From Planctomycetota bacterium (GTDB lineage: Bacteria > Planctomycetota > Brocadiia > SM23-32 > JAKLEA01), in assembly GCA_022711755.1 (NCBI GenBank), contig JAKLEA010000010.1, positions 128,899 through 192,898 of the forward strand: a stretch of DNA of 64,000 nt, given 5' to 3'. The position numbers were made by a program, and so were the translations under genes. The notes beneath the pieces were generated by a model, which ran no database searches, was not told the origin of the DNA, and was given only the letters and a program-made list of their open reading frames with translations. Shown one piece after another: positions 13,209-50,277 of this stretch (position 1 is its first letter; every line of letters starts with the position of its first letter).

Positions 13209-13463
13209 TTCTATCCCTCCTGGACGCAGACGATCGGCGGCGGTTAAATTATTCCAATACCGGCAGCCGCCAATTCCGGTCCCCGATTCGGAAACGGATG
13301 ATACAACGCCTCCCGCCGAATGTCAACAGAATTTCCATAAATCTCCAGAAAATCAAGACCTGTGGCAAAACCCGGCTTGTGGGGATAAGCCTGGATACCA
13401 TAGGTTGTATCATGAGTTGCTATGGTGTATATATGCTGTATGGCGCAGGTTTCATTGTGCGCG

Positions 13464-25735: not shown

Positions 25736-27262
25736 TTATTCGAGTTCCCTGATCCGTATGTTCTTGAACCACACGTCGTTGCCGTGATCCTGGAAACCGA
25801 TGTGGCCCTCGCGCTTCATGTCTTTGTAGGCGATTGGGAACTTGTTGTCCGTGCCGTCGGGATTCTTATGGGCCTCTTTCCAGTCGTCCAGATTCATGTC
25901 AATGATCTGCTCGCCGTTCAGTTCCACCTTGACGCTGGGGCCTTTGCAGGTCAGGACGCAGTGGTTCCACTCATCTGTCGGCTTGCAGGCGTTCTTGCTG
26001 GGGGCGAGGCAGTCGTAGATCGCGCCGCAGTCGTGCTTTTCAACCTTTTCCTTGCCGTAGGAGTCGAAGACCTGGATTTCGATGCCGGTGCTGACGGGGT
26101 CGCCCGTTCTGTCCGTGCGGAAGAAGATGCCGCTGTTGCCGCCCTTGGAAATCTTGAAGTCGAGTTCCAGGACGAAGTCGCCGAAGCGGTCCTTCGTCCA
26201 GATGTATCCGCCGCCCTTGCGGGCCAGGACGCCGTCTTGGATGATCCACTGACCCTTCTTGCAGTCCCAGCGGCCGAGTTCGCGGCCCTTCAGGAGATAT
26301 CGCCAGCCTTCCTTGTCCGCCTCGGCGGTTTGCGCGCTGGGCGCGTCGTCAACCGCCAGGTCGCCCATGGCGTACTGGATGCCGTCCAGGTAATGCTGGA
26401 GGATCGCCGGATTCCAGAATATCTCCTCCATATGACCCAGGGAGCAGTAAAAGACGCGGCCCTTGCCGTAGCGGCGGACCCATGTGACGGCGAAGTCGCC
26501 GTCCTTGCGCTTGATGCCGTCCTTGGACATGTTGGTCTTGTTGACGTCCAGGCTGAGCAGGACGCGCAGGTTCTTGCGCGAATAGGGATCGCGGAACTGG
26601 TAAATCTCATCCCTGACGCTGAAGCCCGCCGCGCCGAAGGCGGCGCAGAGGGGGTGATCCGGCTCCTCGACCTTGACGCCGACCTCTTCGCTCCAGGGGT
26701 GGCCGTCAAAGTAGCCGCCCATCATCTCGCCGTATTCCGCCCAGTTGTAGAAGCAGTCGGTGGCGGCGTGGATGCCGATGAGTCCCTTGCCGCCGGAGAC
26801 GAAGTCCAGCAGGGCTTTGCGAAGGCGGTCGCTCCTCTCGCGGGCTTTGGCCTGCTCCGCCTGGGGGAGCTTGTCGTAGTCGGGCGGCATGAACAGGTCG
26901 AGCGTGGTGTTGTTCATGCAGACGGCGTCGAACTGGGCGAGGCTCTCTGGCTCGAACATGGCGATGTCTTCGCTGGTCACGGTCTCAAACGCGCCGGTCT
27001 TCTGGCCCATGAGTTCGAGGGCTTTGGCGCCGCATTCGATTGAGCTGTGCCTGAAGCCGCGGCACAGGCCGAAGACGAGAATCTTGCGGGGCTTGGCGGG
27101 CTTGGCGCGGGCCTTTTCGGGCAGGTATTTCTTGATGAGTTCCAGTTCGCGTTCGGTCGGCGGCGCGGCGAAGAGAGGGCCGGCGCAGGCGGCGGCGAAC
27201 ATGACAACGGCCAGGGCTTGAGCGAGTCGTGATTGCATCTGTAAGTCTCCTTGATGATTCAA
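25736..27262 (-). CDS. secreted ThuA-like (type 1 glutamine amidotransferase-fold) + DUF1080 (3-keto-disaccharide hydrolase-like) fusion protein
   Basis: Signal peptide, then ThuA-like N-terminal half (KILVFGLCRGFRHSSIE...GLIGIHAATD). The C-terminal half is DUF1080 (GWRYLLKG...DFVLELDFKISKGGNSGIFFR...GHIGFQDHGNDVWFKNIRIRE). Confidence 0.75.
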   Translation of the reverse strand: MNHQGDLQMQSRLAQALAVVMFAAACAGPLFAAPPTERELELIKKYLPEKARAKPAKPRKILVFGLCRGFRHSSIECGAKALELMGQKTGAFETVTSEDIAMFEPESLAQFDAVCMNNTTLDLFMPPDYDKLPQAEQAKARERSDRLRKALLDFVSGGKGLIGIHAATDCFYNWAEYGEMMGGYFDGHPWSEEVGVKVEEPDHPLCAAFGAAGFSVRDEIYQFRDPYSRKNLRVLLSLDVNKTNMSKDGIKRKDGDFAVTWVRRYGKGRVFYCSLGHMEEIFWNPAILQHYLDGIQYAMGDLAVDDAPSAQTAEADKEGWRYLLKGRELGRWDCKKGQWIIQDGVLARKGGGYIWTKDRFGDFVLELDFKISKGGNSGIFFRTDRTGDPVSTGIEIQVFDSYGKEKVEKHDCGAIYDCLAPSKNACKPTDEWNHCVLTCKGPSVKVELNGEQIIDMNLDDWKEAHKNPDGTDNKFPIAYKDMKREGHIGFQDHGNDVWFKNIRIRELE

Positions 27263-27323
27263 TTACGCCATGCGTCGCCGCGCGTAGCACCGCGCGCGCG
27301 CCGCGCGCGTGTTGTTATCGGAG

Positions 27324-28052
27324 CTACTTCCGGGGAATTTCGCGGATGAAGACGTTCCTGAAGTAGAGGGTGTTTCCGTGGTTCTGGAGTTCGATCTGGC
27401 CCGTCGGGTAAATCGGCTTGTCCCTCTCCCAGTAGTTTTCCATCGTGACGTTGTCAACGACCAGTTCGCCGTTGAGGTAGACGGTGACCTTCTCGCCGAC
27501 CATGATGATGCGGAAGGTGTTCCATTCGCCGATGGGTTTGTCGGCGCATTTGGAGGGCTTGCTGGGATTCTTCTGGTTGTTGTACAGCCCTGCGGAGCCT
27601 TCGGGGTGATCGGCGGGGTCCCATATCTGAACCTGGGGGCTGCCGCGCAGGTAGATGCCGCTGTCGCCGTGCTCCTTTATCTTCCAGTCAACGAAAAGCT
27701 CAAAATCGCCGTAGTCCTTTGCCGTGCAAAGACTGTCTCCGCCACCATCGAAGACCAGGACGCCGTCTTCAACCTTCCAGTGAGCGCGCATTTTTTCGTC
27801 GGCCTTCGCCTGCGCTTTGGCCATCTGCTGCTCGTTCAGCTTCGCCCTGGTCGGTGGGCTTTCCACCAGGCCCTTCCAGCCTTCAAGGTCCTTGCCGTTG
27901 AAGAGGGCGACAAAGCCCTCCGGGGGGCAGTTGAGCCTGCTGTCGCAGGCTTTAGCCGACGCGCAGCGCTTCTCCTCCGCCCTCGCGACGCCGATCACGA
28001 CCGCCAGCGCCGCGATTGCGGCGACGGCAAACATTCCGCGCTTATTACTCAT
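27324..28052 (-). CDS. DUF1080 domain protein (3-keto-disaccharide hydrolase family), secreted
   Basis: Signal peptide, then FNGKDLEGWKG...DFELFVDWKIKEHGDSGIYLRG...GQIELQNHGNTLYFRNVFIREI. A conserved DUF1080 C-terminal motif is present. Confidence 0.85.
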   Translation of the reverse strand: MSNKRGMFAVAAIAALAVVIGVARAEEKRCASAKACDSRLNCPPEGFVALFNGKDLEGWKGLVESPPTRAKLNEQQMAKAQAKADEKMRAHWKVEDGVLVFDGGGDSLCTAKDYGDFELFVDWKIKEHGDSGIYLRGSPQVQIWDPADHPEGSAGLYNNQKNPSKPSKCADKPIGEWNTFRIIMVGEKVTVYLNGELVVDNVTMENYWERDKPIYPTGQIELQNHGNTLYFRNVFIREIPRK

Positions 28053-29029
28053 GGTTTGCTCCGATCCTCTTCAAGAAAAGCCGGGCCGGAAGCGCCGAAG
28101 CGCATGATGGTCCGCCCGTCGTTTTCGGAAAGCATTATCATAGCGGAGACGCCGGGGTGTTGTCGAGAATATCGTTCGATCTCCAGCGGTGACATGAGCA
28201 TGAAGGCAGTCGAAAGACAATCACTCAGCGCGCCGGAGGGAGCGGCGCACCACGCGCCGAGTTTCTCCGTCGCCGGGCGTCCCGTGCGCGGGTCAACTAT
28301 GTGATGCCCCTGCAGGAGGATGCCGGAGCCGCTCAGGGAGGCGTCGCTCAGGCTGATATGGCCGAGGCTGCCGGAGTCGTTCTGCGGGTCGCGCAAGGTC
28401 AGCGGCCAGCCCTTCCGCCCCGGAGGGTTGCCGATGGCAAGCGCGCTGCTCTGCCCGCCGTGCAGGACGGCGTTCGGGATTGACCAGTCGCGCAGAAGCT
28501 CCGCCATGCGGTCGAGCGCGTAACCCTTGCCGACGGCGCCGAGGTCAATGAGGACTCCCGACTTTCGGACGCCGACCGAGTGGCCGGAGGCGTCAATCTC
28601 GAGGAGGCTCATGCCGGTCAGCGCCAGCGCGCGGGCAAGGTCGCCCTCGTCCGGTTTGCCGTCATGGGCGGCGCGAAGGCATTTCAAGATTGCGCCGACG
28701 GTCACGTCGAATGCCCCGTTCGTGTCCGCGTTGACCTGCGCCGCCAGCTTGAGACATTCCATCGCGGCGAGGCCGACGCGGATTCTCTGCCCCGGGGCGA
28801 GGGAGTTTATCCGGGAAACGTCGCTGGAGGGCAGGAAGCGGCTGAGTTCCTCCTCAAGGCGGTCAAGCTCCTCGAAACACGCCCGCGCCGCGTCATAGGC
28901 GTACGCCGGGTTCTCCTCGATCATGAAGATTTCGAAGATGGAACCCATCGCGCGATGGCTGAATCGCCGGAGGGGAACGCCTGGGTCTGCCGGGGAGCCG
29001 ATTCTAGCGCCAATTTCGCGGTCGCTCAT
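28049..29029 (-). CDS. apbE: FAD:protein FMN transferase (ApbE family)
   Basis: AMGSIFEIF...DRLEEELSRF..SDVSRIN and GAxxKGYALD (DLGAVGKGYALD) are present. These motifs are diagnostic of ApbE flavin transferases. Confidence 0.85.
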   Translation of the reverse strand: MSDREIGARIGSPADPGVPLRRFSHRAMGSIFEIFMIEENPAYAYDAARACFEELDRLEEELSRFLPSSDVSRINSLAPGQRIRVGLAAMECLKLAAQVNADTNGAFDVTVGAILKCLRAAHDGKPDEGDLARALALTGMSLLEIDASGHSVGVRKSGVLIDLGAVGKGYALDRMAELLRDWSIPNAVLHGGQSSALAIGNPPGRKGWPLTLRDPQNDSGSLGHISLSDASLSGSGILLQGHHIVDPRTGRPATEKLGAWCAAPSGALSDCLSTAFMLMSPLEIERYSRQHPGVSAMIMLSENDGRTIMRFGASGPAFLEEDRSKP

Positions 29030-30600
29030 TTCGCATTGCCCGCCGCAGGGGGAGGGGACGCCGACCGGCGCTCGATGAGCGCGTCCCAGAGATCGGTCCG
29101 GATGTAACAGAGGATGAAAAGCTCCGGCCTTAGGCCGAAGTACTCCTCGTGATATTCCTTCTCAAGAACGGGAAGCAACTGCTCGCGGTATTCCGGCGCA
29201 AGCAGGATTATCGCGGCGCGAGAGTCGGCGGGCGGGTTTGTCCAGAAGCCGACGTTGTCGAATTTGCGCAGGTACCACGGAAGCGGCCAGTAATCCGGCG
29301 CAATCACCTTCACGGTCAGGTTGTGCCGCTCCGGGCTGACGGAGGCGACCTCCTCGACGCGCTCGTAAAGGTGCTCGACGTCATGGACTGGGTGGCCGTA
29401 GACGTAGGGATTGCGCCTGTCCGTATGGAAGCGGAAGTTGAGCAGATAAGTCTGAGCCAGAAGATTTGCGATCCCCGCGGCCATGAGTATGCGGATGATG
29501 TCCTTTCGCGGGACGGTTCGCTGGGCTCTGACCAGGGAGACGGCGCCGACGCCGCCAAGCAGAACCATGCCCTGAAGGGGGCCGAGGGCGCACCAGGGGG
29601 TTTTATACGGAATGGCCGAGTACGCGGCGAGCAAGAGGATGGTGTAGAAGGCCAGGAAGCGGCAGAGCGGGGCCTCGTCGCCGTTGAGGATTCGCGGCGA
29701 GAAGGCGTAGTAAGCGCCCGTGAGCGCCATTACCAGGATGAACGCCTCAGACCATAGATAGCGGTCGCCGTGGCGATTATAGAGCAGAAGCTTGAGGTAG
29801 AAGTTCCAGGGGTGGACGTGGGCGTCGCGCGCGCCGGCATGATGGAAGTAACGGAAGTAGGTGAGGACGGAATCGAGCGGCCCGCGCGGATTGCTGAGCA
29901 GGGAGGAGAAGAGGACGGCGGAAACGCCGGCGCCGAGGAGGACAGCGGCGACGACGTAGCGGCGGTCCGGGCGAAACTTCTCCGCCGTGACGCCGCCGAA
30001 TCTGCGGTTCCAGAGATGCGTCAGGAACAGCGCTCCGGCCATCGCGGCGAAGGCGACGACGCAGGTCTCCTTCGTGGCGTGCATGAGGCCCGCGCCGAGG
30101 CCGGCCAGGAGCAGCCACCCGTCGTCGCGGCTGCGGTAGTATCGCCAGCATCCGCCGATGACCAGGAGCGTGAAGAAGATGAGCAGCGTCTCGTGGATGT
30201 AATACCGGCTGTAGAAGACCATCGCCGGGGAGACGGCTGCCAGCATCGCGGCGTAAAGGACGATCCATCGCCCCAGCTCCTTCGCAAAGAGGAACAGGAA
30301 CGGGATCATGAGCGCGCCGAGGACGGCGGGGAGCGAGCGGAACACGGTTTCGCCGGTCTGCGCGAAGCTGCCGGCCCCGCTCAGCCACATCGGGATGAAG
30401 CTCAGATAGTAGAGGCTGGGTCCGTGATATTCGTCGGGGTCGTAACGATACTCGTTAAGGTCGTACAGATAGCGGAACTTGATAGTGTTGACGGCTTCAT
30501 CGCCATGCATGGGCCGCGCGTCGAGGGCGATAATCCTCAGCGCGACGGCCCCGGCCAGCGCGGCCGCCATCAGGACGCGGAACGTCCAGCGTCTAGTCAT
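29026..30600 (-). CDS. polytopic membrane protein, GT-C fold / glycosyltransferase family 39 (ArnT/PMT)-like
   Basis: 524 aa with more than 10 TM helices and an N-terminal periplasmic-loop DE motif (PMHGDEAVN) typical of ArnT/PMT GT-C enzymes. The start overlaps the upstream stop by 4 nt. Confidence 0.55.
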   Translation of the reverse strand: MTRRWTFRVLMAAALAGAVALRIIALDARPMHGDEAVNTIKFRYLYDLNEYRYDPDEYHGPSLYYLSFIPMWLSGAGSFAQTGETVFRSLPAVLGALMIPFLFLFAKELGRWIVLYAAMLAAVSPAMVFYSRYYIHETLLIFFTLLVIGGCWRYYRSRDDGWLLLAGLGAGLMHATKETCVVAFAAMAGALFLTHLWNRRFGGVTAEKFRPDRRYVVAAVLLGAGVSAVLFSSLLSNPRGPLDSVLTYFRYFHHAGARDAHVHPWNFYLKLLLYNRHGDRYLWSEAFILVMALTGAYYAFSPRILNGDEAPLCRFLAFYTILLLAAYSAIPYKTPWCALGPLQGMVLLGGVGAVSLVRAQRTVPRKDIIRILMAAGIANLLAQTYLLNFRFHTDRRNPYVYGHPVHDVEHLYERVEEVASVSPERHNLTVKVIAPDYWPLPWYLRKFDNVGFWTNPPADSRAAIILLAPEYREQLLPVLEKEYHEEYFGLRPELFILCYIRTDLWDALIERRSASPPPAAGNAK

Positions 30601-31304
30601 TTTGCAGGCTTGCCGTAGACTTCAACCTCTGTGTAGTGGTTCATGTCGTCGGCGGTGCTGCCTTTGCTGTAAAGGCGGATGTAACGGGCCTTGACGCCCT
30701 TGGCGTCAATGTATTTGCCCTCGTAGGTCTCGAAGTAATGCTTGTCCTTGCCGATGCCCAGGCCGGTGGAGTTGTCGTTGTCGTTGTTGAACAGGGTCTG
30801 GACGTTGGTGATGAAGTCCGGATCATCCGCTGTCTGGATGACGACGCCCTTGTAGATGCGGGGGTCGCGGTGATAGTGCCAGACCATGACGGCGTAGAGT
30901 TCGCTCTGGGCGCCGAGGTCAATCTGGACGTGCTGGAGGCCGGGTCCGAGTTCGACGTAGCCGTCCTCCGTGGCCTCCTTGTATCCGTCGGTGACGTTCT
31001 TGAGGTCGCCGACGATCGGCTCCTCGTCGCTGCCTGTGATCTCCTTGTCCTTGGCGAGGTTGTCGCAGCCCTTCGGCACCTTGATGGCCGGGCGGGGGCC
31101 TTTGCGGGCCGGTTCAAGGTTCAGTCCGGGAGGGACGTTCTTTGGCGTTCCGGCGAAGACGGGCTTGGGCAGTTCCAGTTGAAGGTCAACCAGGTCGGCG
31201 TTCGCCGCGGTTGACGCGCACTTTGCCTCCTCCGCGCGGGCGATTGTCGCGCCCAGCAGCGCGGCGGTCACGATCAGGATCGGCAGGTATGTTCGGTTTT
31301 TCAT
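30597..31304 (-). CDS. secreted F5/8 type C (discoidin)-like carbohydrate-binding domain protein
   Basis: Start MKNRTYLPILIVTAALLGA is preceded by AAGGAG. The C-terminus VQIDLGAQSELYAV...ARYIRLY is discoidin-like. The longer ORF up to 31949 is a spurious extension that overlaps the cytochrome b gene. Confidence 0.55.
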   Translation of the reverse strand: MKNRTYLPILIVTAALLGATIARAEEAKCASTAANADLVDLQLELPKPVFAGTPKNVPPGLNLEPARKGPRPAIKVPKGCDNLAKDKEITGSDEEPIVGDLKNVTDGYKEATEDGYVELGPGLQHVQIDLGAQSELYAVMVWHYHRDPRIYKGVVIQTADDPDFITNVQTLFNNDNDNSTGLGIGKDKHYFETYEGKYIDAKGVKARYIRLYSKGSTADDMNHYTEVEVYGKPAK

Positions 31305-31996
31305 GATGATGTCTCCTTGTCTTTCCCGCTCTTTTCCCACAACGGGTGATGGGCCTTGGCCCACTTTTCGCTTACGCGGCCCGTAATGATTGCCTGAATT
31401 GTTCCGGGATTGGCCAGCGTGCCCAGGTAGGCGTGAGCGAGCGCCCACGCGACCAGGAAGAGCGCGCTGAGCCGGTGAACCCACAGCAGAACGCATTGCC
31501 CCGTCGGGTCCAGCGCCGGCCAGAGCCTGCCCAGGCCGGACAGGATGACCGCGAACCCGGCAGTCGCGACGATCCAGAAATATGCCTTCTGCCCGGCGTT
31601 GAAACGCCCGGCGGGCAGGTGGTCGCGCTTCCAGATGTACCCGCCCATCTGGATCATCCAGCGCAGGTCGTAGGGCTTGAATCCGGCGTCGGCGGACCAT
31701 CCGGCCACAATCAGCGCGGCGCCGATCGCGAAGGCCGGGGCGGCATAGTAGTGGTAAAGCATCAGTTTGCCCGTCAGCGACGGCCATCCGGACAGAACGG
31801 CGTAGAAACCCGTGGCTCCCAGCGTCAGGAAGGACAGCAGCGTCAGCGCATGAGCCAGTCGCTCCAGGACGCTGAACCTGCGAATTTCCGGCTTGCCGCC
31901 GCCGGCGTCCTTGTGAGGCGGACCGAAAACCAGCAGGTGCAGGACGCACGCTCCCGCTGTTCCTATTATCGCAGCTATGGCGAGGACGCGAAACAC
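31301..31996 (-). CDS. membrane cytochrome b subunit (Ni/Fe-hydrogenase / formate dehydrogenase gamma-type, b561-like)
   Basis: Four TM helices with conserved His residues (HALTLLSF, HYYAAPAF, HRLSALFLVAWALAHAY). The start codon abuts the stop of the multiheme cytochrome gene. Confidence 0.7.
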   Translation of the reverse strand: MFRVLAIAAIIGTAGACVLHLLVFGPPHKDAGGGKPEIRRFSVLERLAHALTLLSFLTLGATGFYAVLSGWPSLTGKLMLYHYYAAPAFAIGAALIVAGWSADAGFKPYDLRWMIQMGGYIWKRDHLPAGRFNAGQKAYFWIVATAGFAVILSGLGRLWPALDPTGQCVLLWVHRLSALFLVAWALAHAYLGTLANPGTIQAIITGRVSEKWAKAHHPLWEKSGKDKETSS

Positions 31997-33856
31997 CTAT
32001 TCCTTCTCCGATTCGTCGGCGCAGAACGGGCAGGTCTCAAAGCCCTTCAACGCGCCGGCGATTGCCAGGCAGAGGTTATGCAGAACCGTGATTCCCATGA
32101 CCGCCAGGGAACCGAGCATCACGGCGGTGAAGACCGGGCGCAGCTTCAGGGCGGGCGCCCAGCAGTTCATCAATTCCCCGTCCACTCCCTGGAACGCGGA
32201 CATGGCAGTCGAGGCGGGCTTGTCAGCCGCGGGGGAGGCGTCGGCGGTTACGGTTCCGTGGAAGAACGCGGAGTTCTTTTCGTGGCAGTCCGCGCACCCG
32301 CCCGCGCCGAGGGACTGCTGCGCCGGGCGAACGTCGTGCGCCATGGCCCATGCGTAAGGCTTCGCCTCGCCGCCCGCCTTGCCGCCGGCGGAGTAGACGC
32401 ACCCGCCGGAAACGTAGACCGCCGTTCCTTCCCCGGCGGTCTCGGCTAGCGCTTCGAGCACCTTGTCCACGGTCTCTTTGGCAAGCCCGGCGGCTTTCTT
32501 CTCCCCGCCCTCTTCAGAGGCGGCGACCTTGAGAATTGAGCCGGCCGCTTTGGCTACCTTTGCGGGCGGGATGGGTTGTATCCCGCTTCCGGTCATGACG
32601 CCCCAGAAGGCGGGCCACATCATGCGGTGCGGCGCAATCTTCCCGTCCGCGTTCCGGATGAAGACGGGCTGAACTATGCGCGGGGGATCGTCGTTGCCGC
32701 GGTGCAGGCTGGACGGACCGAGGTTGTGCGCCATGGCCGTCTGGACGGGGATGGTCTGGGCTTCCGGCTTCGGGCCGGAGTGGCAGGCCGTGCAACTCAG
32801 CTTGTCCAGGTGGAGTCCGGGCAGACCTGCGTGGCGGGGTCGGGGGGCGCCGAAACGCCCCTGATTCGCGTCGCCGAGGTGACAGCCGCGGCAGGTCAGG
32901 CTCGCGCGCTCAAGATCGGCGCTTTCGCCTTCATAGCCGCGCACTATGTTGTGGCTGATGCCGTTGGCGTGGCAGTCGGAGCAGCCCATGCCGGAGGCCA
33001 GATGGACGTCGCCGTCCGTCTTCCAATCGTCCACGGGTTCCACATCGGCCCGCCTGACGGTGTGGCAGAAGTAGCAGCGGCGCGGATCGGGCTTCTTCTG
33101 AACGTTGAAGAGAACGCGCCCGTCGGAATCGAAGCGGCTCTGGTCATAGACAATTTCCGGGACGAGGTCTTCCGACCCCGGCTCCGGCATTTCCGGATCG
33201 AAATCGTCCGGGAGCCTCATCGCGGAGCCGCGCACGACGCCAAGTCCGGATACGGCAACGTGCGCCCACTTATAGTTCTGTTGCTTGATGAGGCTGCCCC
33301 ATTGCGTCTGATCGTGTTCCGGGGTCGCGTTATGGCACGTCAGACAGTCAATGGTCAGCTTGCCGCTGACGCCCCACCGGGCGTTTGGATCCTTGTCCCC
33401 GTCGGCAAGTTTCTCCCCGGGACCGCCGCCGGGCATGTGATGGCCAAACTTCTGCACGAATTCCCACGGGCTTAACCCGGCGTCGCCCGGACGGAAGGTC
33501 CCCTCCCATTTGCGGTAGGAGAGGGGGATCTGCGTTCTGGCGGCCTTATCCGTCAGAATCCAGGGTTCGCCGGGCCTGCCGGGTGGCGCTTCGGGGTCAA
33601 CGGCGTTGTAGTGCCGCCCGTTGCCCACGGCGTCGTAGTCGTGGCACTTGCCGCACGTGCCTACGGGGGAGTATGGTCCGGTTTCAGACGGCTCTTTGGG
33701 ATCAATGGTTTCCCGGCTTTCGTCGTAGAGGGAGACGCGGTGCGTGAATCGCGCGCGGCTGCCCGTACGCGGGGTTTCCGCTGCGCGGAGTCCCGCCGCA
33801 AGACCGGCTGCCGCGCTGATCAAGCACGGTAGAAGGAAAAGGCGCTTATTGCGCAT
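31997..33856 (-). CDS. membrane-anchored heptaheme c-type cytochrome
   Basis: Signal peptide, then seven CxxCH motifs (CGKCH, CLTCH, CYFCH, CSDCH, CRGCH, CTACH, CADCH). A single C-terminal TM helix (VFTAVMLGSLAVMGITVLHNLCLAIAGAL) is also present. Confidence 0.8.
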   Translation of the reverse strand: MRNKRLFLLPCLISAAAGLAAGLRAAETPRTGSRARFTHRVSLYDESRETIDPKEPSETGPYSPVGTCGKCHDYDAVGNGRHYNAVDPEAPPGRPGEPWILTDKAARTQIPLSYRKWEGTFRPGDAGLSPWEFVQKFGHHMPGGGPGEKLADGDKDPNARWGVSGKLTIDCLTCHNATPEHDQTQWGSLIKQQNYKWAHVAVSGLGVVRGSAMRLPDDFDPEMPEPGSEDLVPEIVYDQSRFDSDGRVLFNVQKKPDPRRCYFCHTVRRADVEPVDDWKTDGDVHLASGMGCSDCHANGISHNIVRGYEGESADLERASLTCRGCHLGDANQGRFGAPRPRHAGLPGLHLDKLSCTACHSGPKPEAQTIPVQTAMAHNLGPSSLHRGNDDPPRIVQPVFIRNADGKIAPHRMMWPAFWGVMTGSGIQPIPPAKVAKAAGSILKVAASEEGGEKKAAGLAKETVDKVLEALAETAGEGTAVYVSGGCVYSAGGKAGGEAKPYAWAMAHDVRPAQQSLGAGGCADCHEKNSAFFHGTVTADASPAADKPASTAMSAFQGVDGELMNCWAPALKLRPVFTAVMLGSLAVMGITVLHNLCLAIAGALKGFETCPFCADESEKE

Positions 33857-33862: not shown

Positions 33863-35233
33863 TCAGACCTTGAACTGCTCGGGGTTGAACTCGACCATGC
33901 CCTTCTTGGCGATTGAGTCGTTGGCGGCCAGAACGGTGACGGCCGTTTCATAGCCGACCTCGCCCGGGCAGGAAAGGGGAGTGCCGTTGCGGATTGCGTT
34001 GAAGAAGTTCTCCAAGTGGACCTGATGGGGCGGCTTGCTCAGATTGGCGACCATCTGCTCCACCACGGCATCCTTCTTGCCGCCGGCCTTGAGTGTCTCG
34101 CCGACCTTCAACGAGATCTCCGACCGTCCCATCTTATCCAACTCGGCGCTATCGTCTTCCCATTCGCGCTTCTTGGCGCGAGGCTCTTTGATGATCTTGC
34201 CGATCGTATCATCCTCAGAAATTTGCATGGTGCCTTCATCGCCAAGGAATGTTTCATATAGATTGCCGAAGCTGGACGTATTCAGGACTTGGTAGTAAGC
34301 CCTGACGGGGCCGGCTTCGGTGGCGTATTCGTAGATCGTCAGGACGTTATCGTACCACTCGCGGCCCTTGTAATAGTCCAGCCCGCCGCTGGCAATGACA
34401 GTCTTCGGCGGCGTCATAAGGAACCAGTTATAGATGTCAATCTGATGGGAGCCGAGGTCGGCGATCAGACCGCCGGAATATTGGCGGAACCAACGCCAGT
34501 TACGGAAACGCTGCATGGTGTCGTAACCGTACTTCTTAAGGGATGCTTCATCCATATCAGCGCCCTTTGCCCAGCCAATCTCGTCGCTTTGGCTGGTGCC
34601 GCGGTTCCATTGCCCGTTGCAGTGCGTGATGCGGCCCAGAATCTTGTCCTTCGTGATCATCTTCAGCGCATGGTGATAGCGCGGGTTGCTGCGGCGCTGG
34701 TGGCCGATCTGGAGGAGCTTCTTGGTTTCGCGGGAGGCGAGGACCATCTCCTTCGCTTTCGCCAGGTCGTTGGACATCTCTTTTTCGCAGTAGACGTGCA
34801 GTCCGGCCTTCATGCAGGCGATGGAGTGTTCGGCGTGGACCCAGTCCGGGCTGGCGACTATGACGGCGTCCAGGTCCTTCTCCGTGGCCAGCATGTCCTG
34901 ATAGTCCGCATAAGGCTTCGCCTCATGGTCAAACTTTTTCAGTATCTTTACCTGGCGGTTGAGGTTGAAAGCCCAAATGTCGCAGACTGCGACAAAACGG
35001 ATGCCCTCGATTTTCAGGGCGTTGTTCACCAGGTTGTTCCCCTGACTACCAGCGCCGATGATGGCGACCTTGAGATCGTCCGGCTTCGGGGTCGTCTTCG
35101 GGGTTTCCTGGGGCTTTTCCTCCTTGGCGGCCTCCTGGCCCATCACGGACGAGGAGAGGACGGCGCCTGCGCCAACCGTGGCAACGGACCGCACGAAATC
35201 GCGTCTTGAGAGCGTGAATTTGATTTCTTCCAT
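33863..35233 (-). CDS. Tat-exported periplasmic Gfo/Idh/MocA family oxidoreductase (glycoside 3-dehydrogenase-like)
   Basis: Twin-arginine signal SRRDFVRSVATVGAGA, then Rossmann motif KVAIIGAGSQG and a Gfo/Idh/MocA C-terminal domain. It lies 6 nt upstream of the heptaheme cytochrome gene. The ORF from 35284 gives a 17-aa longer N-terminus. Confidence 0.8.
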   Translation of the reverse strand: MEEIKFTLSRRDFVRSVATVGAGAVLSSSVMGQEAAKEEKPQETPKTTPKPDDLKVAIIGAGSQGNNLVNNALKIEGIRFVAVCDIWAFNLNRQVKILKKFDHEAKPYADYQDMLATEKDLDAVIVASPDWVHAEHSIACMKAGLHVYCEKEMSNDLAKAKEMVLASRETKKLLQIGHQRRSNPRYHHALKMITKDKILGRITHCNGQWNRGTSQSDEIGWAKGADMDEASLKKYGYDTMQRFRNWRWFRQYSGGLIADLGSHQIDIYNWFLMTPPKTVIASGGLDYYKGREWYDNVLTIYEYATEAGPVRAYYQVLNTSSFGNLYETFLGDEGTMQISEDDTIGKIIKEPRAKKREWEDDSAELDKMGRSEISLKVGETLKAGGKKDAVVEQMVANLSKPPHQVHLENFFNAIRNGTPLSCPGEVGYETAVTVLAANDSIAKKGMVEFNPEQFKV

Positions 35234-35342
35234 GTTGTGTATCCTTTGAATCAGAGTTGTCGGTTTATCCTGCGGACGGGTCATCCGGCGCGCCGCCGGG
35301 GTTCCGTCCCTGAATTATCAAGCGCGGCGTCCGGGCCGGCAT

Positions 35343-36341
35343 TTATTGATCCTTGAGTTCCACGACCCAGATGTTGCGGTAGCGCACCGGATTTCCGTGG
35401 TCCTGCAGGCGCAGCGGGGCGGTCGGCACGGCATCGGCCCCGGCGGCTCCGCCGGTGGGGCCGGGCACGACGAGGTTGTCATGAATGACCTCGCCGTTAT
35501 GCTCTACCGTGACCGTGACGGGCTTGACGACCTTGCCGGCGGCGTCAAAGCGCGCGGCGCGGAAGGTCATGTCGTAGGTCTGCCAGGAGAGCGGCGGGCA
35601 GCAGGCATTGACGCGCGGCTTGGCGATCTTATAGATGCCGCCGCAGTCGTTGTCCGCCGATCTCAGTCCGTATGAATCGAGAACCTGCACCTCGTAGCGA
35701 TCCTGAAGGTAGACGCCGCTGTTGGAGCGGCCCTGGCCGAGGCTGATGGGGTCGTAGCAGCAGCGGAATTCAAGGTGGAGTTTCATGTCCCCGAACGAGC
35801 GGACGGTCTTGTTGTCTCCCTTGAAGACCTCGACGCTGCCGTCCGGCATGGGCTTCCAGTTCTTGTTGATCCACTCGTCGAGGGGGGGATTTTCGCAGGG
35901 GTACTTCAGCAGGACGATCGCGCCTTCCGGGGGCTTGGCGCCCAGCGTGGGGGACTTGCGGATCGTGTATTCCGCCGCGTACTTGTCGCCCTTCTCGGAT
36001 TCCGCGGCGGCCTTGCCGTTGCCGACGGTTCCTGTCCACTTCACGCCCGCGCCTGAATCGTCAATCTTTATCACGCCGTCCTTGAGCATGCCCCTGAGGA
36101 GCAGGCGGGAAATCTTGCCCTTGTGGCCGGGTATGTCGGTCTGGAATACGACGCGATAACGCTCCTTTCCGTCCGGAACGACGTAGACGACGGCCTTCTG
36201 CTCCTCGCCGGCGGCGGGTTTGAAGGTTCCGATGTAGTCTCCCATGAGCTTGTCCGGCAGTTCCTCCAGCGTCACCTGCTGGGCGGACGCCCGGACGACG
36301 AGGACCGAGAGCAGACAGACAAGCAGGGCTGTTCGGCGCAT
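35343..36341 (-). CDS. secreted DUF1080 domain protein (3-keto-disaccharide hydrolase family)
   Basis: Signal peptide, and a C-terminal DUF1080 signature (DMKLHLEFRCC...GVYLQDRYEVQVLDS...LRLQDHGNPVRYRNIWVVEL). Confidence 0.8.
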   Translation of the reverse strand: MRRTALLVCLLSVLVVRASAQQVTLEELPDKLMGDYIGTFKPAAGEEQKAVVYVVPDGKERYRVVFQTDIPGHKGKISRLLLRGMLKDGVIKIDDSGAGVKWTGTVGNGKAAAESEKGDKYAAEYTIRKSPTLGAKPPEGAIVLLKYPCENPPLDEWINKNWKPMPDGSVEVFKGDNKTVRSFGDMKLHLEFRCCYDPISLGQGRSNSGVYLQDRYEVQVLDSYGLRSADNDCGGIYKIAKPRVNACCPPLSWQTYDMTFRAARFDAAGKVVKPVTVTVEHNGEVIHDNLVVPGPTGGAAGADAVPTAPLRLQDHGNPVRYRNIWVVELKDQ

Positions 36342-36496
36342 CTGATCTCTCCGTTGGCGGCGTCCTGCGGCTCATTTGCCGGCCCCCAGCCGCCTCGGGG
36401 ACCGCTTTGAAGGACAAGGGATCATGCGGGAGCGGGTTTGAAACCCATCCCCGCACAATTCAGGTTAACATTGAAGGGAACCAAAGTAAAGAAACA

Positions 36497-36524
36497 GGGC
36501 CGCAGAGTCAAGTCCCTGCGGCCC
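36497..36524. terminator. bidirectional intrinsic terminator-like hairpin
   Basis: gggccgcag-N10-ctgcggccc with T-runs on both strands (tgtttctttactttgg on minus, attttcgccattttt on plus). It sits just downstream of the 36612 stop. Confidence 0.5.
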
Positions 36525-36611
36525 CGGATTTTCGCCATTTTTGCGGATCGCGTCGCCTTCCGCCCGCTCAGGCTCTTTCAGTCTGGAAGCCCTTGCGCGG
36601 GCTTGCCGGAC

Positions 36612-39600
36612 CTATTTCAGCCCTCCCTGGCAATCGCACTTGATGTCGGGAAGCGGGCCGCCGTCGGCGGCTCGGACGCGCGCGCAGGCGGACCAGTTGT
36701 CCTTGTAGTCAACAACCTTGAGCAACAGGTCGTTCCATCCTTCCTTAAGACTGATTTTCACTTTATCTTCCCAAGCTGTGGTCGGGCGCACTGCCTTGTT
36801 GGAATGGACTTCGACGCCGTTGAGCCAGACCTTGATGCCGTCATCGCTGCCGACTTCAAGCTGCGCATCCTGCTCCTTCGGGGAATGGATGCGCGTGCGG
36901 AGATACGCGGCGCGATCGTCCCCTCCAATGGATGCGTCAAGGTTGATCAGCCAGGGCTTGTTGCCTTCTCCGACGTCCTGGTCATTCCATTCGACGCCCT
37001 TCGCATCGGCCTGTTCCGGCGGGAACGCGACGTCGAATATCTCCTGCCCGGTCTTGCCTTCCTGCATGTAAGGCCCGGACACCTGCCAGCAGTCCAGGAA
37101 GGTATCCGGCGAGAAGGAGAGTAGTTCCGTCGCGCCCTGGGACTCGATCTTCAGTCCTTCGACCTTGCCGCCGTCAACGCCGCGAATTCTGGCGCAGGCG
37201 CTCCAGTCCCCGCCGCCGTCCGTGATTTTCATCAGCAGGCAGTTCCAACCCTCGTTGAGGGCGACCTTAACCTTGTCCTCGCCGGGATTCATGCCGCGGG
37301 AGGCGTTGTTCGCGTGGACGACCGCCCCGTTGAGCCAGACCTTGATGCCGTCGTCGCTGCCCATCTCAAGATTGACCTCCTGAGCCTTCGGGGAGTAGAC
37401 CTTGGTCAGGAGGTACGCGCAGCGCTGGTCTCCGCCGATGGTCGCGTTGAGGTCAATCATCCAGGGCCTGTTCTGGTCGGTCCCGACCTTCTGAGAGGTC
37501 CACTTTTCAGACTTGGCTTCAGAAGTCTCAGGCGGGAAGGCCATGTCGAAAAGGGCCTTGCCGTCCTTCCCCTCTTTCAAATACGGTCCGGCGACAAGCC
37601 ATGACGTGATGAAGTCCTCGTATTTCTCGATGATTTCCCGGACTTCCTGCGCCTGTTTGCGCACGGACTCCGACTTGGAGACTTCCAGAACCTTCGTTAC
37701 CGCCGCTTTCGCGGCATCCTTGTCGTCGGCGCTCACGTTTTTGGCAATCTTCACCAGCGCGAAGGCCGCCTCGGTGGAAAGGTCCTTGTCCGCCAGGTAA
37801 GGTTCGACCATTTTGAGGGCGGCGGAGTTGGAGACATCCGCGACGCCGGAGAGGACCATTCTACGTTCCTCGGGGCGCTCGGCGACCTCCATCCCTTTTG
37901 CGAAGAGAGCCAGCGTCTCAGCCGCGGAGCGCTCGCTGGGCAGGCCGACGACCCTGACGTATCCGCGCAGGGCCAGTACCTTTTTCGGGAGGTCGGGGGC
38001 GTTCTTCGCCAGTTGCAGCAGTTCCTCCGCCGGGGCGGCGTCCGGCCACTCGGACAGGACGCGCAGGGCGGTCTCGCGGGTTTCCTCGTCATCGCTCTTC
38101 AGGGCTGCGCGGACGGACTCAAGCGCCTTCGCCCCGCCCAGTCGCCCGGCCGCGCGAAGCAGCGCGCACCGGGTCTTCGGCTGGGCATTTGCCAGTTCCG
38201 CAAGGATGGGGGCGACGCGCGCGTCCTGGTCGGAAATCTGCTTGGCCGCGTTCACAAGGGACGTTTCAGCCGCTCGCTGTTCCGCGCCCTCGGACTTCAT
38301 GAAAAGAGCCAGCACGTCGCCCATGGCCTCAGGCCCGGCGACCATGCTCAGGGCGTCAAATGCGGCGATGCGGACCTTCTTATCCGCGTCCTGCGCGGAC
38401 CAGAGGAGGATGGGCGCGGCGGCGGAGCAGTTGCGGTCGGCGATCACCTGTATCAGGGCAACCTTCCGCCCGGCGTCCGCGCCGGGGATGGCTGCGACGA
38501 TAGCGGCGTCAACCATCTCGCCCTGCGCGGTCTTCAGGCAGGACAGAGCGGTGTTCCGCTCCGCGCTTTCCTCGGACCCGAGCGCCTTCACCATGATCGG
38601 AACGCCCGACGCGCCGGCCAGCGGGACGAGCGCCTGAAGGGCGGCGTTGCGCACCATGAGGCTCTTGCTCTTCGTGGCTTCGATGACGGCGGGCGTCGCG
38701 GAGGTGTCCTTGCGCTCGGAAAGCGCGCCCAGCAGGGCGGCCTGCGCGGCGGGGCTGAGCTTCGGAAGCTGATCGGCGAATGCCTTTGTCGCCTGCTGGC
38801 CCGGCATGTCAACGACGTACCTGGCCGCCGTTGGGAACAGGTTTGGATCGTCCCCGGCCAGAAGCTTTGAGATCAGGGGCACGGACATCTCGCCCCGGCA
38901 GTTGACAATGCCCTGCAGGGCGGCGATCTGGACGTGCGCAGCCTCGCAGGGGCAGAACATGTCATCATAAATCGCCGCGGCGGCAACCTTATCCCCTGCT
39001 GCCGCGAGCCTGTCCGCGCAGAGCAGATAAGAGTCAATCACGAGCGGTCGCGCCGCGCCGATGCAGGCGTCCTTGAGCTGCTTGAGCTTCGCGGCGGCCT
39101 CGGCGTTGCCGATCTTGCCCAGGGCGGCGACGGCGGCGGACGAGGCGTCAGCGTCGGCGTCGTCGGCCAGCGCGGCCAGTTGCGGGACGGATTGCGCGTC
39201 GCCGCGCTCGCCCAGGGAGTTGATGATGCCAATGCGCGTCTTGCCCTGTGCGGCGTTCAGCGCGTTGCGGAGCGCGTCGCCGGCCTCCGGGCAGGGCATG
39301 CGCTCAAGCGCGTAGCGGGCCATGTCGCCGGGACTGGCGGCGCCGGGACCGGCTTCCGGGGCGGCCAGGAGCTTTTCAAGCGCGGGGACAGCCTCCGCGT
39401 CGCCGATCTCGCGCAACTGGCGGCAGACGAAGTCCTTGCACGCCGTTGTGGCGTCTGTGCCCAGGATGGCGGCAAGGCGCTCGGAGACGGCCTTGCGCTT
39501 TGCCGGGTCAGCCGCGGTCGAGTTGCAGTAGTCCTCTATGACGCTCAGGCAGGCGCGTTCCTTGTCATAGTCGTAGGCGACCATGTCGGCGAACGCCTTC

Positions 39601-39785: not shown

Positions 39786-39850
39786 TCCTTCCTTTTCTTT
39801 GCCGAAACATCGGGGAAATCCCGAATGCCGGGAATCCGTTCGATTATTGC

Positions 39851-41130: not shown

Positions 41131-41220
41131 TTCTGAGCGTCTCCAGTGGTCGGGCATTTACGATGTGACGAAACGCGGGGGCGCGCAATGCGCCCTTGCG
41201 CAGAGCATTTTCTCTCGCTG

Positions 41221-42504: not shown

Positions 42505-42551
42505 GTCGCGCAAGGTTGTCCGGCGGAACTCAAGGCGAGAATCGGGAACTT

Positions 42552-50191: not shown

Positions 50192-50277
50192 GGCAAACCT
50201 TCCAAATCCCTCGCGCGTCCACCTAATGTCACGCCTTCATTATTACCCTTTCCCCATCGTCCAGTCCAGCGCTCCGC

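Follow-up and report, generated by a model that had tools for sequence, protein, structure and literature searches.

Which molecule receives the flavin when an ApbE-family FAD:protein FMN transferase is encoded beside no recognizable target? Canonical ApbEs are periplasmic and membrane-tethered (PMC12052999), and about 4% of apbE-bearing genomes have no known substrate (PMC8238504). The question is raised here by a 64-kb stretch of planctomycete DNA (the window), in which positions 28049–31304 of the minus strand encode an ApbE, an 11-helix GT-C membrane protein and a secreted protein of CBM32/discoidin fold. The original prediction held that no neighbor was a canonical ApbE target and that a novel flavinylation substrate or a novel flavin-dependent membrane enzyme was implied. 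As an observation it stands as a whole, since gene content and coordinates match ours; its interpretation is partly supported.

Operon organization and gene identities

The ApbE/GT-C/CBM32 trio forms one tightly overlapped minus-strand operon with a Gfo/Idh/MocA dehydrogenase, a heptahaem cytochrome c and an FdnI-type cytochrome b. On the same strand, the upstream HEAT-repeat gene ends in a terminator-like hairpin (36495..36526; 13-bp stem with 10 GC pairs, T-rich tail), which delimits the operon on its 5′ side. The first gene encodes a secreted protein of the DUF1080/3-keto-disaccharide hydrolase family (35343..36341; PF06439, 103 bits). It is followed by GFO_TAT, a Tat-exported Gfo/Idh/MocA NAD(P)-dependent sugar dehydrogenase (33863..35284; PF01408/PF02894), the heptahaem c-type cytochrome (31997..33856; seven CxxCH, Pfam cytochrome c7/c3) and a membrane di-haem cytochrome b of the formate dehydrogenase gamma (FdnI) type (31301..31996; PF01292; TIGR01583, 119.1 bits against a cut-off of 115.85). 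Next come the 235-aa CBM32 (F5-8 type C) protein (30597..31304), the GT-C protein (29026..30600), ApbE (28049..29029), a second secreted DUF1080-family protein (27324..28052; PF06439, 163 bits) and, last, a secreted ThuA-DUF1080 fusion (25736..27262; PF06283 and PF06439). The junction sequences contain ATGA overlaps at cytochrome b/CBM32, CBM32/GT-C, GT-C/ApbE and ApbE/DUF1080, with the CBM32 gene overlapping both neighbors, the ApbE start the GT-C stop, and the DUF1080 start the ApbE stop. Upstream of the cluster on the same strand lie the system II cytochrome c maturation genes for CcsA (42552-43508) and ResB (43803-45575; PF01578 and PF05140 for the pair), a context for its haem c protein.

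Profile searches, AlphaFold2 and Foldseek agree with the three identities first assigned to the trio. The GT-C protein clears the TIGR03663 cut-off (193 against 126 bits) and has PMT/PMT_2 matches in Pfam. Its earlier description as GT39-like needs amending: the PMT (GT39) models match the N-terminal part only, and NCBIfam places the protein in the Agl23-type family TIGR03663. The AlphaFold2 model of the 29026-30600 product has a GT-C fold (pLDDT 94), with Foldseek matches to the GT-C enzymes AglB, STT3, ALG12, ArnT and Pmt4; helix count and the positive-inside rule predict 11 transmembrane helices and a periplasmic C-terminal alpha/beta domain. Its invariant motifs are DE, HGP, SRYYIxE, ATKET, HxHPW and YKTPW. 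The 30597-31304 product, whose Pfam F5/8-type-C match is below threshold, adopts a CBM32/discoidin fold (pLDDT 86; Foldseek target TM-score up to 0.80) and carries a conserved N-terminal LPxPxFxGTP segment.

In GFO_TAT the TAT signal model matched weakly, below cut-off, and the RRxF (Tat) motif is kept in at least 88% of 40 orthologues; the solved structures closest to it are those of inositol, glucuronide-3 and C-glycoside dehydrogenases and GFOR. The heptahaem cytochrome has a Sec signal peptide and, by hydropathy, a single C-terminal transmembrane helix (residues 574-592). Its haem motifs are kept in 44 orthologues, and a sequence search for solved homologues returned none.

A signal-less ApbE with intact motifs

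ApbE scores 168 bits against PF02424 (cut-off 25.6) and has all the catalytic motifs (DLGAVGKGYALD, LSGSG, HHIVDPRTGRP and SDCLSTAF). It is distant from characterised ApbEs, at low identity and with a best PDB E-value of 6e-19. Such distance, together with the empty acceptor search described below, would suit a protein that is no longer a flavin transferase but instead binds FAD, cleaves it as a pyrophosphatase, or has a structural part in the GT-C complex. Indeed, Treponema pallidum Ftp shows FAD pyrophosphatase activity. However, all catalytic and FAD/Mg-binding motifs are kept in at least 88% of 56 orthologues, which points to retained chemistry, and we regard loss of transferase function as very improbable.

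ApbE has neither a signal peptide nor a lipobox. A hydrophobic N-terminus was found in none of its 120 closest homologues, none of 56 locus orthologues and none of the ~135 unfused members among the best 150 cluster representatives; across ~300 clade members there was no signal peptide. The standalone protein should thus be cytoplasmic, and periplasmic flavinylation, originally taken as given, cannot simply be assumed. Cytosolic ApbEs do exist, and that of Klebsiella pneumoniae, also without a secretion signal, serves a soluble fumarate reductase (PMC12052999). A role for the present gene as a lone housekeeping apbE serving nqr or rnf is unlikely, because a signal-less ApbE could not reach NqrC or RnfG and because this clade is locked to the cluster in dozens of species.

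Conservation, coupling and fusion

We examined synteny at 80 loci, each representing a species, from a set of at least 597 matched genomes. The cluster occurs across Planctomycetota, Verrucomicrobiota, Kiritimatiellae, Hydrogenedentota and KSB1. ApbE lies directly downstream of GT-C in 50 of 71 loci, and within 10 kb upstream are the heptahaem cytochrome in 35 of 47 and GFO_TAT in 33 of 47. The presence of ApbE tracks the cytochrome (36/2/1/6, Fisher p = 2.3e-5) and GFO_TAT (p = 3.5e-4). CBM32 is directly upstream of GT-C in 67 of 77 testable loci; where ApbE is missing, the pair stands alone amid unrelated housekeeping genes. In locus L014, cytochrome and dehydrogenase are present with no ApbE within reach. 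The GT-C protein, as originally remarked, is unexpected in a redox operon, but it is a genuine member. In the explanation that we favor, this ApbE comes from a separate clade without signal peptides, devoted to a single conserved set of genes.

ATGA overlaps connect GT-C and ApbE at 32 of 58 junctions inspected, where a leader of 20-22 aa usually precedes the ApbE core. About 15 of the best 150 cluster representatives (~10%) are GT-C::ApbE fusions, with non-hydrophobic linkers of ~6 to 140 aa. Loci L003 and L061, both fused, are 62.6% identical over 852 aa, so the fusion is inherited; near the L061 fusion there are only distant Tat-GFO paralogues and no cytochrome. Fusion is predicted to place ApbE on the periplasmic C-terminus of GT-C. 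In addition, a GT2 resembling polyprenyl-phosphate glycosyltransferases is convergent to ApbE in 37 loci, every one ApbE-positive; in this window no GT2 adjoins GT-C.

Coupling and fusion, some of it with almost no linker, raise the possibility that ApbE and GT-C act as one functional unit. The acceptor would then be GT-C, CBM32 or a non-protein molecule handled by GT-C, for instance a glycan or an intermediate linked to polyprenyl phosphate, yielding a flavin-bearing membrane enzyme or a flavin-phospho-glycan that exchanges electrons with the cytochrome chain. The convergent GT2 would fit this scheme, a missing protein motif is expected of a non-protein acceptor, and the ApbE fusions known so far join it to substrates (DUF2271 and eukaryotic fumarate reductase; PMC8238504, PMC12052999). 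Yet the CBM32-GT-C pair occurs elsewhere without ApbE, whose presence follows the redox genes; in L041 (Kiritimatiellae) and L085 (Verrucomicrobiia) ApbE adjoins cytochrome genes rather than GT-C. Moreover, a cytoplasmic standalone ApbE could not reach CBM32 or the periplasmic face of GT-C, and we know of no ApbE with a non-protein acceptor other than water. No Ser/Thr in GT-C or CBM32 is specific to ApbE-positive loci, the sole discriminating position, S227, being within a transmembrane helix. On balance we find a GT-C-centered unit doubtful. A text search of PMC8238504 did not find "glycosyltransferase," and a literature search for ApbE with "mannosyltransferase" gave unrelated titles only.

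The search for an acceptor

As originally surmised, no neighbor is a canonical target: a scan of all 16 cluster proteins found no [ST]G[AGS][ST]. Among the real genes of the window, [ST]GA[ST] matched twice, roughly the chance expectation. One match, SEDSGATW, is a BNR Asp-box, and the other, NSGATL, lies in a ThuA-HEAT protein 28 kb away. Across ~80 related genomes (84 loci), no recurrent protein within 10 kb carried [ST]GA[ST], and no [ST]G[AS][ST] stood at a consistent position in 40 GFO_TAT, 44 cytochrome c, 33 cytochrome b, 78 CBM32 or 84 GT-C orthologues. The DNDNSTGLGIG segment of the CBM32 protein, once noted as a weak near-match, also fails as an acceptor. It has Gly at the flavinylated Ser/Thr position, and the loop is kept in 78 orthologues, equally in loci without ApbE.

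The acceptor might instead be encoded elsewhere, for example as a cytoplasmic FMN_bind-containing reductase of the kind of soluble partner seen in Klebsiella, with the position of apbE reflecting co-regulation or history only. The empty 10-kb neighborhoods are what this would predict, and our inspection of this genome covered 64 kb. However, position, coupling and fusion are kept over five or more phyla, and the statistical association with redox genes is tight, all of which is hard to explain without an ApbE function in the cluster. The FMN_red-family protein at 49553-50236 is also without the motif-bearing extension described for flavinylated FMN_red proteins. We consider a distant acceptor improbable.

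A further alternative is that all ApbEs of the clade are periplasmic, the standalone forms being exported unconventionally (e.g., by hitch-hiking on GFO_TAT) and flavinylating the heptahaem cytochrome or another periplasmic protein. Fused forms carried by GT-C recreate the canonical periplasmic, membrane-tethered arrangement, and standalone ApbE occurs with GFO_TAT in 33 of 38 loci having adequate flanks. NosX, a member of the ApbE family, is itself exported by Tat, and in glucoside 3-dehydrogenase and hydrogenases proteins lacking a signal hitch-hike with their Tat-exported partners. A hitch-hiking ApbE is, to our knowledge, without precedent, and a stable ApbE-dehydrogenase complex is conjectural. 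That none of ~135 diverse unfused representatives gained a signal peptide would be odd if the periplasm were required, and the heptahaem cytochrome, too, has no canonical motif. We regard universal export as unlikely.

Comparison with known systems

It is useful to contrast the cluster with its closest known relatives. Its ApbE is of the ApbE/Ftp family (PF02424) and shares the catalytic and FAD/Mg motifs. It differs in having no Dxx[ST]GA[ST] acceptor nearby, in coming from a wholly signal-less clade, in its translational coupling to, or fusion with, a GT-C protein of the membrane, and in its association with haem proteins in place of FMN_bind, NqrC or RnfG. The NapH-like, MsrQ-like, PepSY-like, DsbD-like and DUF4405 flavinylation-associated systems (PMC8238504, PMC11334425) are transmembrane electron-transfer systems that share a general logic with the cluster: apbE is found near genes for extracytosolic redox proteins and for a membrane cytochrome b with two haems. 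By comparison, the cytochrome b here is of FdnI type (PF01292/TIGR01583), accompanied by a multihaem cytochrome c and a Tat-exported NAD-dependent dehydrogenase; FMN_bind, DUF2271, DUF3570, Flavodoxin_4 and motif-bearing FMN_red proteins are absent.

Agl22/Agl23 of Haloarcula hispanica (TIGR03663) serve dolichyl-phosphate-hexose synthesis and use or flipping (PMC11182771). The present GT-C protein passes the same family cut-off and has the family DE and HGP motifs, and the GT2 adjoining the cluster in relatives resembles polyprenyl-phosphate-hexose synthases. However, it is a bacterial, glycosyltransferase-like protein, always paired with a secreted CBM32 protein and joined to ApbE and a respiratory module. 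Formate dehydrogenase-N (FdnGHI) offers a "works like" comparison only: in both, the catalytic subunit is exported by Tat, the electron-transfer subunit has a single transmembrane helix at its C-terminus, and the cytochrome b is of FdnI type, but the catalytic subunit here is a Gfo/Idh/MocA NAD(P) enzyme instead of a Mo-bisPGD enzyme, and the electron-transfer subunit has seven haems c instead of four FeS clusters. Finally, BT2156-BT2160 of Bacteroides thetaiotaomicron, LacABC and ThuAB share with the cluster a Tat-exported Gfo-type dehydrogenase, DUF1080 hydrolases and ThuA, an NF058561 match in this comparison being far below cut-off (82 against 750 bits). LacABC and ThuAB, both glucoside 3-dehydrogenases, are described in PMC8121099 as cytochrome c-dependent; the Bacteroides pathway has no known electron acceptor, and a ping-pong involving another sugar has been proposed for it. 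Here, by contrast, the Gfo-type enzyme appears wired to a multihaem cytochrome, with ApbE alongside.

Discussion

Our preferred explanation, held tentatively and at somewhat less than even confidence, is that this ApbE is dedicated to a sugar-oxidising respiratory module and attaches FMN covalently within it at a site other than the canonical one, with GFO_TAT as the best candidate acceptor. The redox core is built like formate dehydrogenase-N, and electrons would pass from the Tat-exported dehydrogenase, the proposed donor, through the membrane-anchored heptahaem cytochrome c to the FdnI-type di-haem cytochrome b, the presumed quinone reductase end of the chain. The latter would reduce menaquinone, whose biosynthesis genes adjoin the cluster in relatives. 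This core sits amid periplasmic 3-keto-glycoside pathway genes (DUF1080, ThuA), joined to an Agl23-type GT-C and secreted CBM32 pair that elsewhere stands alone.

Bound NAD(P)H donates hydride, that is, two electrons, whereas haems take one electron at a time. On this biochemical argument a flavin would be needed between them, and ApbE would supply it as FMN attached covalently to a module protein outside a Dxx[ST]GA[ST] site. GFO_TAT would be the sole module component folded on both sides of the membrane, and hence the only one that both standalone (cytoplasmic) and fused (periplasmic) ApbE could reach. Zymomonas mobilis GFOR, a Gfo-type protein, is exported by Tat with NADP tightly bound, and passage with bound cofactor has been proposed also for BT2158 (PMC8121099).

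Several observations count against this explanation. The missing motif means an acceptor site of a new type, for which we nominate no residue. ApbE is coupled or fused to GT-C and not to the dehydrogenase, which by Rosetta-stone logic points to GT-C as the partner or substrate. The conflict between a periplasmic fused and a cytoplasmic standalone ApbE is accommodated, not resolved, by the Tat-substrate argument, and L061 and L014, described above, also fit poorly.

As first proposed, the most favored class of explanation is a novel flavinylation substrate or flavin-dependent membrane enzyme, and conserved synteny, ATGA coupling and recurrent fusions strengthen it. Overall, this ApbE clade probably marks an undescribed flavin-attachment system.

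Results

The ApbE gene stands near the end of a minus-strand unit in a Planctomycetota MAG that carries the label 'Candidatus Brocadiia bacterium'. A strong terminator-like hairpin (36526-36495) lies after the upstream HEAT-repeat gene and before the unit's first gene, which encodes a DUF1080 protein (35343-36341). The second gene (33863-35284) encodes an oxidoreductase of the Gfo/Idh/MocA type that carries a twin-arginine signal and is here called the Tat dehydrogenase. It is followed by a cytochrome c (the heptahaem cytochrome; 31997-33856) that combines seven CxxCH motifs with a Sec signal and a single transmembrane helix at its C terminus, and by an FdnI-type cytochrome b (31301-31996; TIGR01583, 119.1 bits against a cut-off of 115.85); with the dehydrogenase, these form what we call the redox module. 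Next come a secreted 235-aa protein (30597-31304; HOX38160.1), a polytopic GT-C protein (29026-30600; HOX38161.1) and ApbE (28049-29029; HOX38162.1), and the unit closes with a second DUF1080 protein (27324-28052) and a ThuA-DUF1080 fusion (25736-27262). Four consecutive junctions are ATGA stop/start overlaps. Genes for system II cytochrome c maturation, CcsA and ResB, lie upstream of the unit. The 61-nt spacer between the second DUF1080 gene and the ThuA-DUF1080 gene holds a perfect palindrome made only of G and C, CGCGCGCGCGCCGCGCGCG (27291-27311), which might act within the unit as an attenuator or mark a site of RNA processing. Rfam and tRNA scans over the window gave zero matches; thus, the window holds no FMN riboswitch.

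Elsewhere in the window, a DnaA gene (13464-14948, minus strand; 494 aa, Walker A GASGLGKTHLL) adjoins a 1.1-kb stretch without a convincing ORF (14950-16070). The 10-16 kb region has lower GC (0.56-0.58), the cumulative GC skew reaches its minimum at ∼16-18 kb, and the DnaA region is probably the chromosomal replication origin. Three more Gfo/Idh/MocA paralogues, of the PF19051 C-terminal type, are encoded on the minus strand at 39851-41419, 41221-42555 and 55518-56927. The first two, both upstream of the unit, have clear twin-arginine motifs (SRRQFL and TRRTFL), and since their ORFs overlap by ∼200 nt, one start codon has probably been over-called. Proteins of ∼1,100 aa with long HEAT-repeat arrays are encoded at 36612-39863 and 56858-60262 (both minus strand); the former has at its C terminus two copies of a ∼150-aa, weakly DUF1080-like domain, the latter has an N-terminal ThuA domain, and neither is conserved beside the cluster in other genomes. 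An FMN_red/flavodoxin-like gene (49553-50236, minus strand) is divergent from a gene for a pyruvate-formate-lyase-like glycyl radical enzyme (50227-52653, plus strand), which suggests an anaerobic lifestyle.

By its sequence and catalytic motifs, the window protein is assigned to the ApbE family, without the usual signal peptide or acceptor motif. It scores 168.1 bits against PF02424 (gathering score 25.6), covering profile positions 1-266 of 266, and its motifs DLGAVGKGYALD, LSGSG, HHIVDPRTGRP and SDCLSTAF line up with the FAD/Mg and catalytic residues of solved ApbEs. These catalytic and FAD/Mg motifs are kept in at least 88% of 56 orthologues. Such retention speaks for chemistry that is still in place, and a loss of transferase function, with which the lack of a recognised acceptor would agree, we regard as very improbable.

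A Sec or lipoprotein signal and a periplasmic location are typical of ApbE proteins, though not universal. No hydrophobic N terminus, signal or lipobox was found in the window ApbE, its 120 closest homologues or the 56 locus orthologues, including orthologues whose gene stands apart from the GT-C gene. A full HMMER search returned 967 cluster representatives of the clade at E ≤ 1e-30, and among the best 150 of these no unfused member has a hydrophobic N terminus. Longer homologues (P0128, P0173 and others) were considered as multidomain proteins and set aside, their extensions being low-complexity sequence or over-called starts with no extra domains. In the homologue P0455 (685 aa), an N-terminal ApbE domain precedes ∼250 aa of helical sequence and a tail, very rich in Lys, that looks cytoplasmic. 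P0455 may owe its make-up to a fusion made in gene calling; should it be real, it would speak for a cytoplasmic ApbE.

The original prediction called the GT-C protein GT39-like. Its PMT/PMT_2 matches over the N-terminal part agree with that label, whereas NCBIfam places it in the Agl23 type (TIGR03663, 'flippase activity-associated protein Agl23'; 193.2 bits, cut-off 126.25). Structure prediction, suggested earlier for the 29026-30600 and 30597-31304 products, gave a GT-C fold and a CBM32 fold, respectively. The AlphaFold2 model of the GT-C protein (pLDDT 94) has 11 transmembrane helices, and C-terminal residues 407-514 form an alpha/beta domain. Its top Foldseek matches are all GT-C enzymes (AglB, STT3, ALG12, ArnT, ALG9, Pmt4 and PglB), with E = 3e-10 for AglB and query TM-scores of 0.56-0.64 against ALG12, ArnT and Pmt4. 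Sequence and fold thus assign it to the TIGR03663/Agl23-type GT-C proteins, and a glycosyl-transfer or flippase-associated activity is a family-based prediction. All of 79 sequences share residues H32, D34, E35, H59, G60, P61, R88 and R132. The conserved periplasm-facing motifs ATKETC (residues 175-180) and YKTPWC (332-337) both end in Cys; C337 is kept in at least 90% of sequences and C180 is the majority residue only. These two cysteines could be joined in a disulfide, or they could help to bind a ligand in the active region.

The topology of the GT-C protein was derived from helix counting, charge bias and homology. All Lys/Arg-rich loops lie on one membrane side, predicted to be cytoplasmic, and the conserved polar motifs DE, HGP, SRYYIxE, ATKET, HxHPW, YKTPW and NPYVY all lie on the other; the AlphaFold2 model and loop charges put the acidic motif in the predicted extracytoplasmic first loop of the GT-C fold. 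PMT-type enzymes also have 11 helices and a luminal C terminus. Loop charge bias, motif sidedness and likeness to PMT together assign the C-terminal domain to the periplasm.

The secreted protein falls below the Pfam gathering scores for F5/8-type-C domains (PF00754, 20.9 vs. 28.2 bits; PF22633, 21.5 vs. 27.8). In its predicted structure (pLDDT 86), residues ∼100-235 form a CBM32/discoidin beta-sandwich, in keeping with the discoidin-like identity first proposed for it. Foldseek found 265 PDB matches at E ≤ 1e-3, CBM32 modules among them at target TM 0.72-0.80. The modeled fold is of the sugar-binding type and is neither FMN_bind nor DUF2271. At the related locus L004, a second CBM32-like paralogue (12732-13415) lies directly downstream of ApbE, with 52% identity to the window protein (tblastn).

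A pattern scan found the GT-C subfamily in at least 597 species genomes, and the best 80 loci were fetched for synteny. Among these best 80 of at least 597, the CBM32 gene is immediately upstream of GT-C in 67 of 77 testable loci, ApbE immediately downstream in 50 of 71, and the heptahaem cytochrome and the Tat dehydrogenase lie upstream within 10 kb in 35/47 and 33/47, respectively; for cytochrome b, tblastn sensitivity in this survey is low. Taxa with the cluster include Phycisphaerae/Sedimentisphaerales, Pirellulales, Hydrogenedentota, KSB1, Kiritimatiellae and Verrucomicrobiia. The GT-C subfamily is also present on contigs labeled Nitrospiraceae (L009, L014 and L074) and Bathyarchaeia (L046), three of which (L009, L014 and L046) share the cluster architecture, with GT-C proteins 42-48% identical to planctomycete versions; these could reflect mis-binning or lateral transfer.

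ApbE and the cytochrome go together: both are present at 36 loci, ApbE alone at two, the cytochrome alone at one and neither at six (Fisher p = 2.3e-5). ApbE-less loci have the CBM32-GT-C pair alone, among housekeeping genes. Thus, because the pair stands alone where ApbE is absent, it is an independent unit that became linked with ApbE and the redox module. At ApbE-positive loci, genes for a permease (NCS1-like or MFS) and for a cytoplasmic Gfo paralogue recur between those for cytochrome b and CBM32, and menaquinone biosynthesis genes recur as well. Distant relatives have menaquinone-related genes inside or beside the cluster (L041, 5386-7269; L006, 13036-14987; L004, 2540-3535), encoding a MenA-like prenyltransferase, polyprenyl diphosphate synthases, VitK2_biosynth (PF02621) and radical-SAM proteins. 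Such neighbors fit a quinone-reducing role of the module.

The association of ApbE with GT-C extends to gene fusion. About 15 of the best 150 clade representatives are GT-C::ApbE fusions or fragments thereof, with hydrophilic linkers of ∼6 to 140 residues. The two genes overlap by ATGA at 32 of the 58 junctions examined, usually with a 20- to 22-residue leader ahead of the ApbE core. The L003 fusion arose by a single extra A in an AAATGA overlap, and this suspicious junction raised the possibility of assembly artefacts, ruled out by a second fused locus and by the ∼15 diverse fused representatives. Indeed, the fusion is real and inherited, since L061 encodes a fused relative, 62.6% identical to L003 over 852 aa, with a remodeled linker. 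A −1 slippage at A_AAA_TGA was considered as a natural route to fusion. At least four A precede TGA in 16 of 38 ATGA-overlap junctions, but the CBM32/GT-C junction is A-rich in the same way, and loci with 17- to 133-nt spacers or nonadjacent apbE still encode a signal-less ApbE; we judge this route weak.

The search for a flavin acceptor bore out the earlier view that no neighbor is a canonical ApbE target: the motif [ST]G[AGS][ST] is absent from all 16 proteins encoded at 25.7-49.7 kb. Window-wide, [ST]GA[ST] occurs in only two real genes, with ∼2 expected by chance. SEDSGATW (∼63926) is a BNR Asp-box, and NSGATL (∼59197), in the ThuA-HEAT protein 28 kb off, is a chance-level match. The FMN_red protein (∼20 kb away) belongs to a known substrate class but lacks the flavinylation motif and a motif-bearing extension. 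The weak near-match proposed in the CBM32 protein, DNDNSTGLGIG, fails as an acceptor: Gly replaces the flavinylated residue, and this CBM32-fold loop is kept with or without ApbE. No motif recurs at any alignment position in 40 dehydrogenases, 44 cytochromes c, 33 cytochromes b, 78 CBM32 proteins or 84 GT-C proteins, and a six-frame scan of 84 loci (ORFs of at least 50 aa; 1.58 million ORF residues) gave only 43 unrelated singletons; QTSGATV in the L004 cytochrome is one such isolated motif. When ∼40 window proteins were scanned against Pfam and NCBIfam, no hallmark domain of a described flavinylation system turned up in the cluster (Nqr, Rnf, NosR, PceC, EET, NapH-, MsrQ-, PepSY- and DsbD-like, DUF2271, DUF3570, P19, Flavodoxin_4 and FMN_red).

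Two readings that look beyond the redox module bear on these results. ApbE and GT-C may share a substrate, or the acceptor may be GT-C, the CBM32 protein or a glycan. The fusions tie the two enzymes together, and 37 related loci, all ApbE-positive, encode a GT2 convergent to ApbE that resembles polyprenyl-phosphate sugar synthases (cf. Agl22-like donor makers), its matches to AglJ, PpgS and dolichyl-phosphate hexose transferases being below threshold; in the window, Pfam and NCBIfam scans found no GT2 beside the cluster. When GT-C and CBM32 proteins of ApbE-positive and ApbE-negative loci were compared, the sole ApbE-specific Ser/Thr was S227, inside a transmembrane helix. We consider this reading unlikely. 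The acceptor may also be encoded elsewhere in the genome, of which the analysis covered 64 kb; set beside the co-occurrence of ApbE with the cytochrome, this is decidedly unlikely.

Discussion

Our analysis leaves ApbE in two apparent compartments. In the fusions, it is attached to a GT-C domain that is periplasmic by every available criterion; the standalone protein should be cytoplasmic. An atypical GT-C topology would reconcile the two and is contradicted by the distribution of charges, the distribution of motifs and homology. Alternatively, the standalone ApbE could be exported unconventionally. Its extension to the whole clade, with every member periplasmic, would accord with the fusions and with the location typical of the family; set against the uniformly signal-less N termini, we find it quite unlikely. 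Finally, the acceptor could be accessible from both membrane sides. This would single out the Tat-exported dehydrogenase, which leaves the cytoplasm already folded and with its nicotinamide cofactor bound. There is precedent for cytoplasmic cofactor binding before Tat export in GFOR, and the same has been proposed for BT2158 (PMC8121099).

The dehydrogenase, heptahaem cytochrome and cytochrome b would form a layout like that of formate dehydrogenase-N, in which an electron wire anchored by one helix stands between a catalytic subunit exported by Tat and a cytochrome b of the FdnI type, in the setting of a putative 3-keto-glycoside pathway (DUF1080 and ThuA). FdnGHI shares the FdnI-type di-haem cytochrome b subunit (TIGR01583), but it has Mo-bisPGD catalytic and four-cluster FeS subunits where the window encodes a Gfo/Idh/MocA enzyme and a heptahaem cytochrome c, so that the comparison is one of how the module might work. 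A hydride donor cannot feed one-electron haems directly; the step is usually bridged by a flavin, and the attachment of FMN to extracytosolic redox proteins is the work of ApbE. From this mismatch and these roles, we tentatively propose, as a plausible reading that falls short of probable, that ApbE flavinylates a component of the module at a noncanonical site. That component would most probably be the dehydrogenase, a point on which our confidence is lower than on the general statement. The complete system, which we offer as possible and rather doubtful, would comprise a signal-less ApbE, coupled to an Agl23-type GT-C protein and fused to it in ∼10% of lineages, that places FMN on a Tat dehydrogenase or multihaem partner lacking [ST]GA[ST]. 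The flavin would bridge bound NAD(P)H and haem c and so connect the quinone pool with the oxidation of sugars in the periplasm.

About half of bacterial genomes are predicted to have ApbE-dependent flavinylation, and to our knowledge all proven ApbE substrates carry the same short motif. The cluster in the window matches no system in the catalogues of PMC8238504 or PMC11334425, and the word 'glycosyltransferase' is absent from the text of PMC8238504. Literature joining ApbE with 'mannosyltransferase' comprised only titles that, as titles, are unrelated, and TIGR03663 appeared in our literature search in an unrelated context only. The Tat dehydrogenase itself aligns with the glycoside 3-dehydrogenase BT_2158 family over its N-terminal part only (NF058561; 82 bits vs. 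a cut-off of 750). For about 4% of the genomes that encode apbE, no substrate is known (PMC8238504). We rate the present case as an orphan-ApbE system whose context is defined, conserved and unusual.

The cluster pins down one class of orphan ApbE, with 967 representatives (E ≤ 1e-30), a fixed context across several phyla and testable acceptor candidates. Should GT-C prove to be the partner, flavin transfer would be linked for the first time to a lipid-linked-sugar transferase. If the acceptor is the Tat dehydrogenase or the heptahaem cytochrome, the recognition rules of ApbE would be extended, and the electron acceptor of periplasmic dehydrogenases that form 3-keto-glycosides would become directly testable. 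It would also explain how NAD(P)-bound periplasmic Gfo-type enzymes, which are very numerous in Planctomycetota and Bacteroidota, feed respiration.
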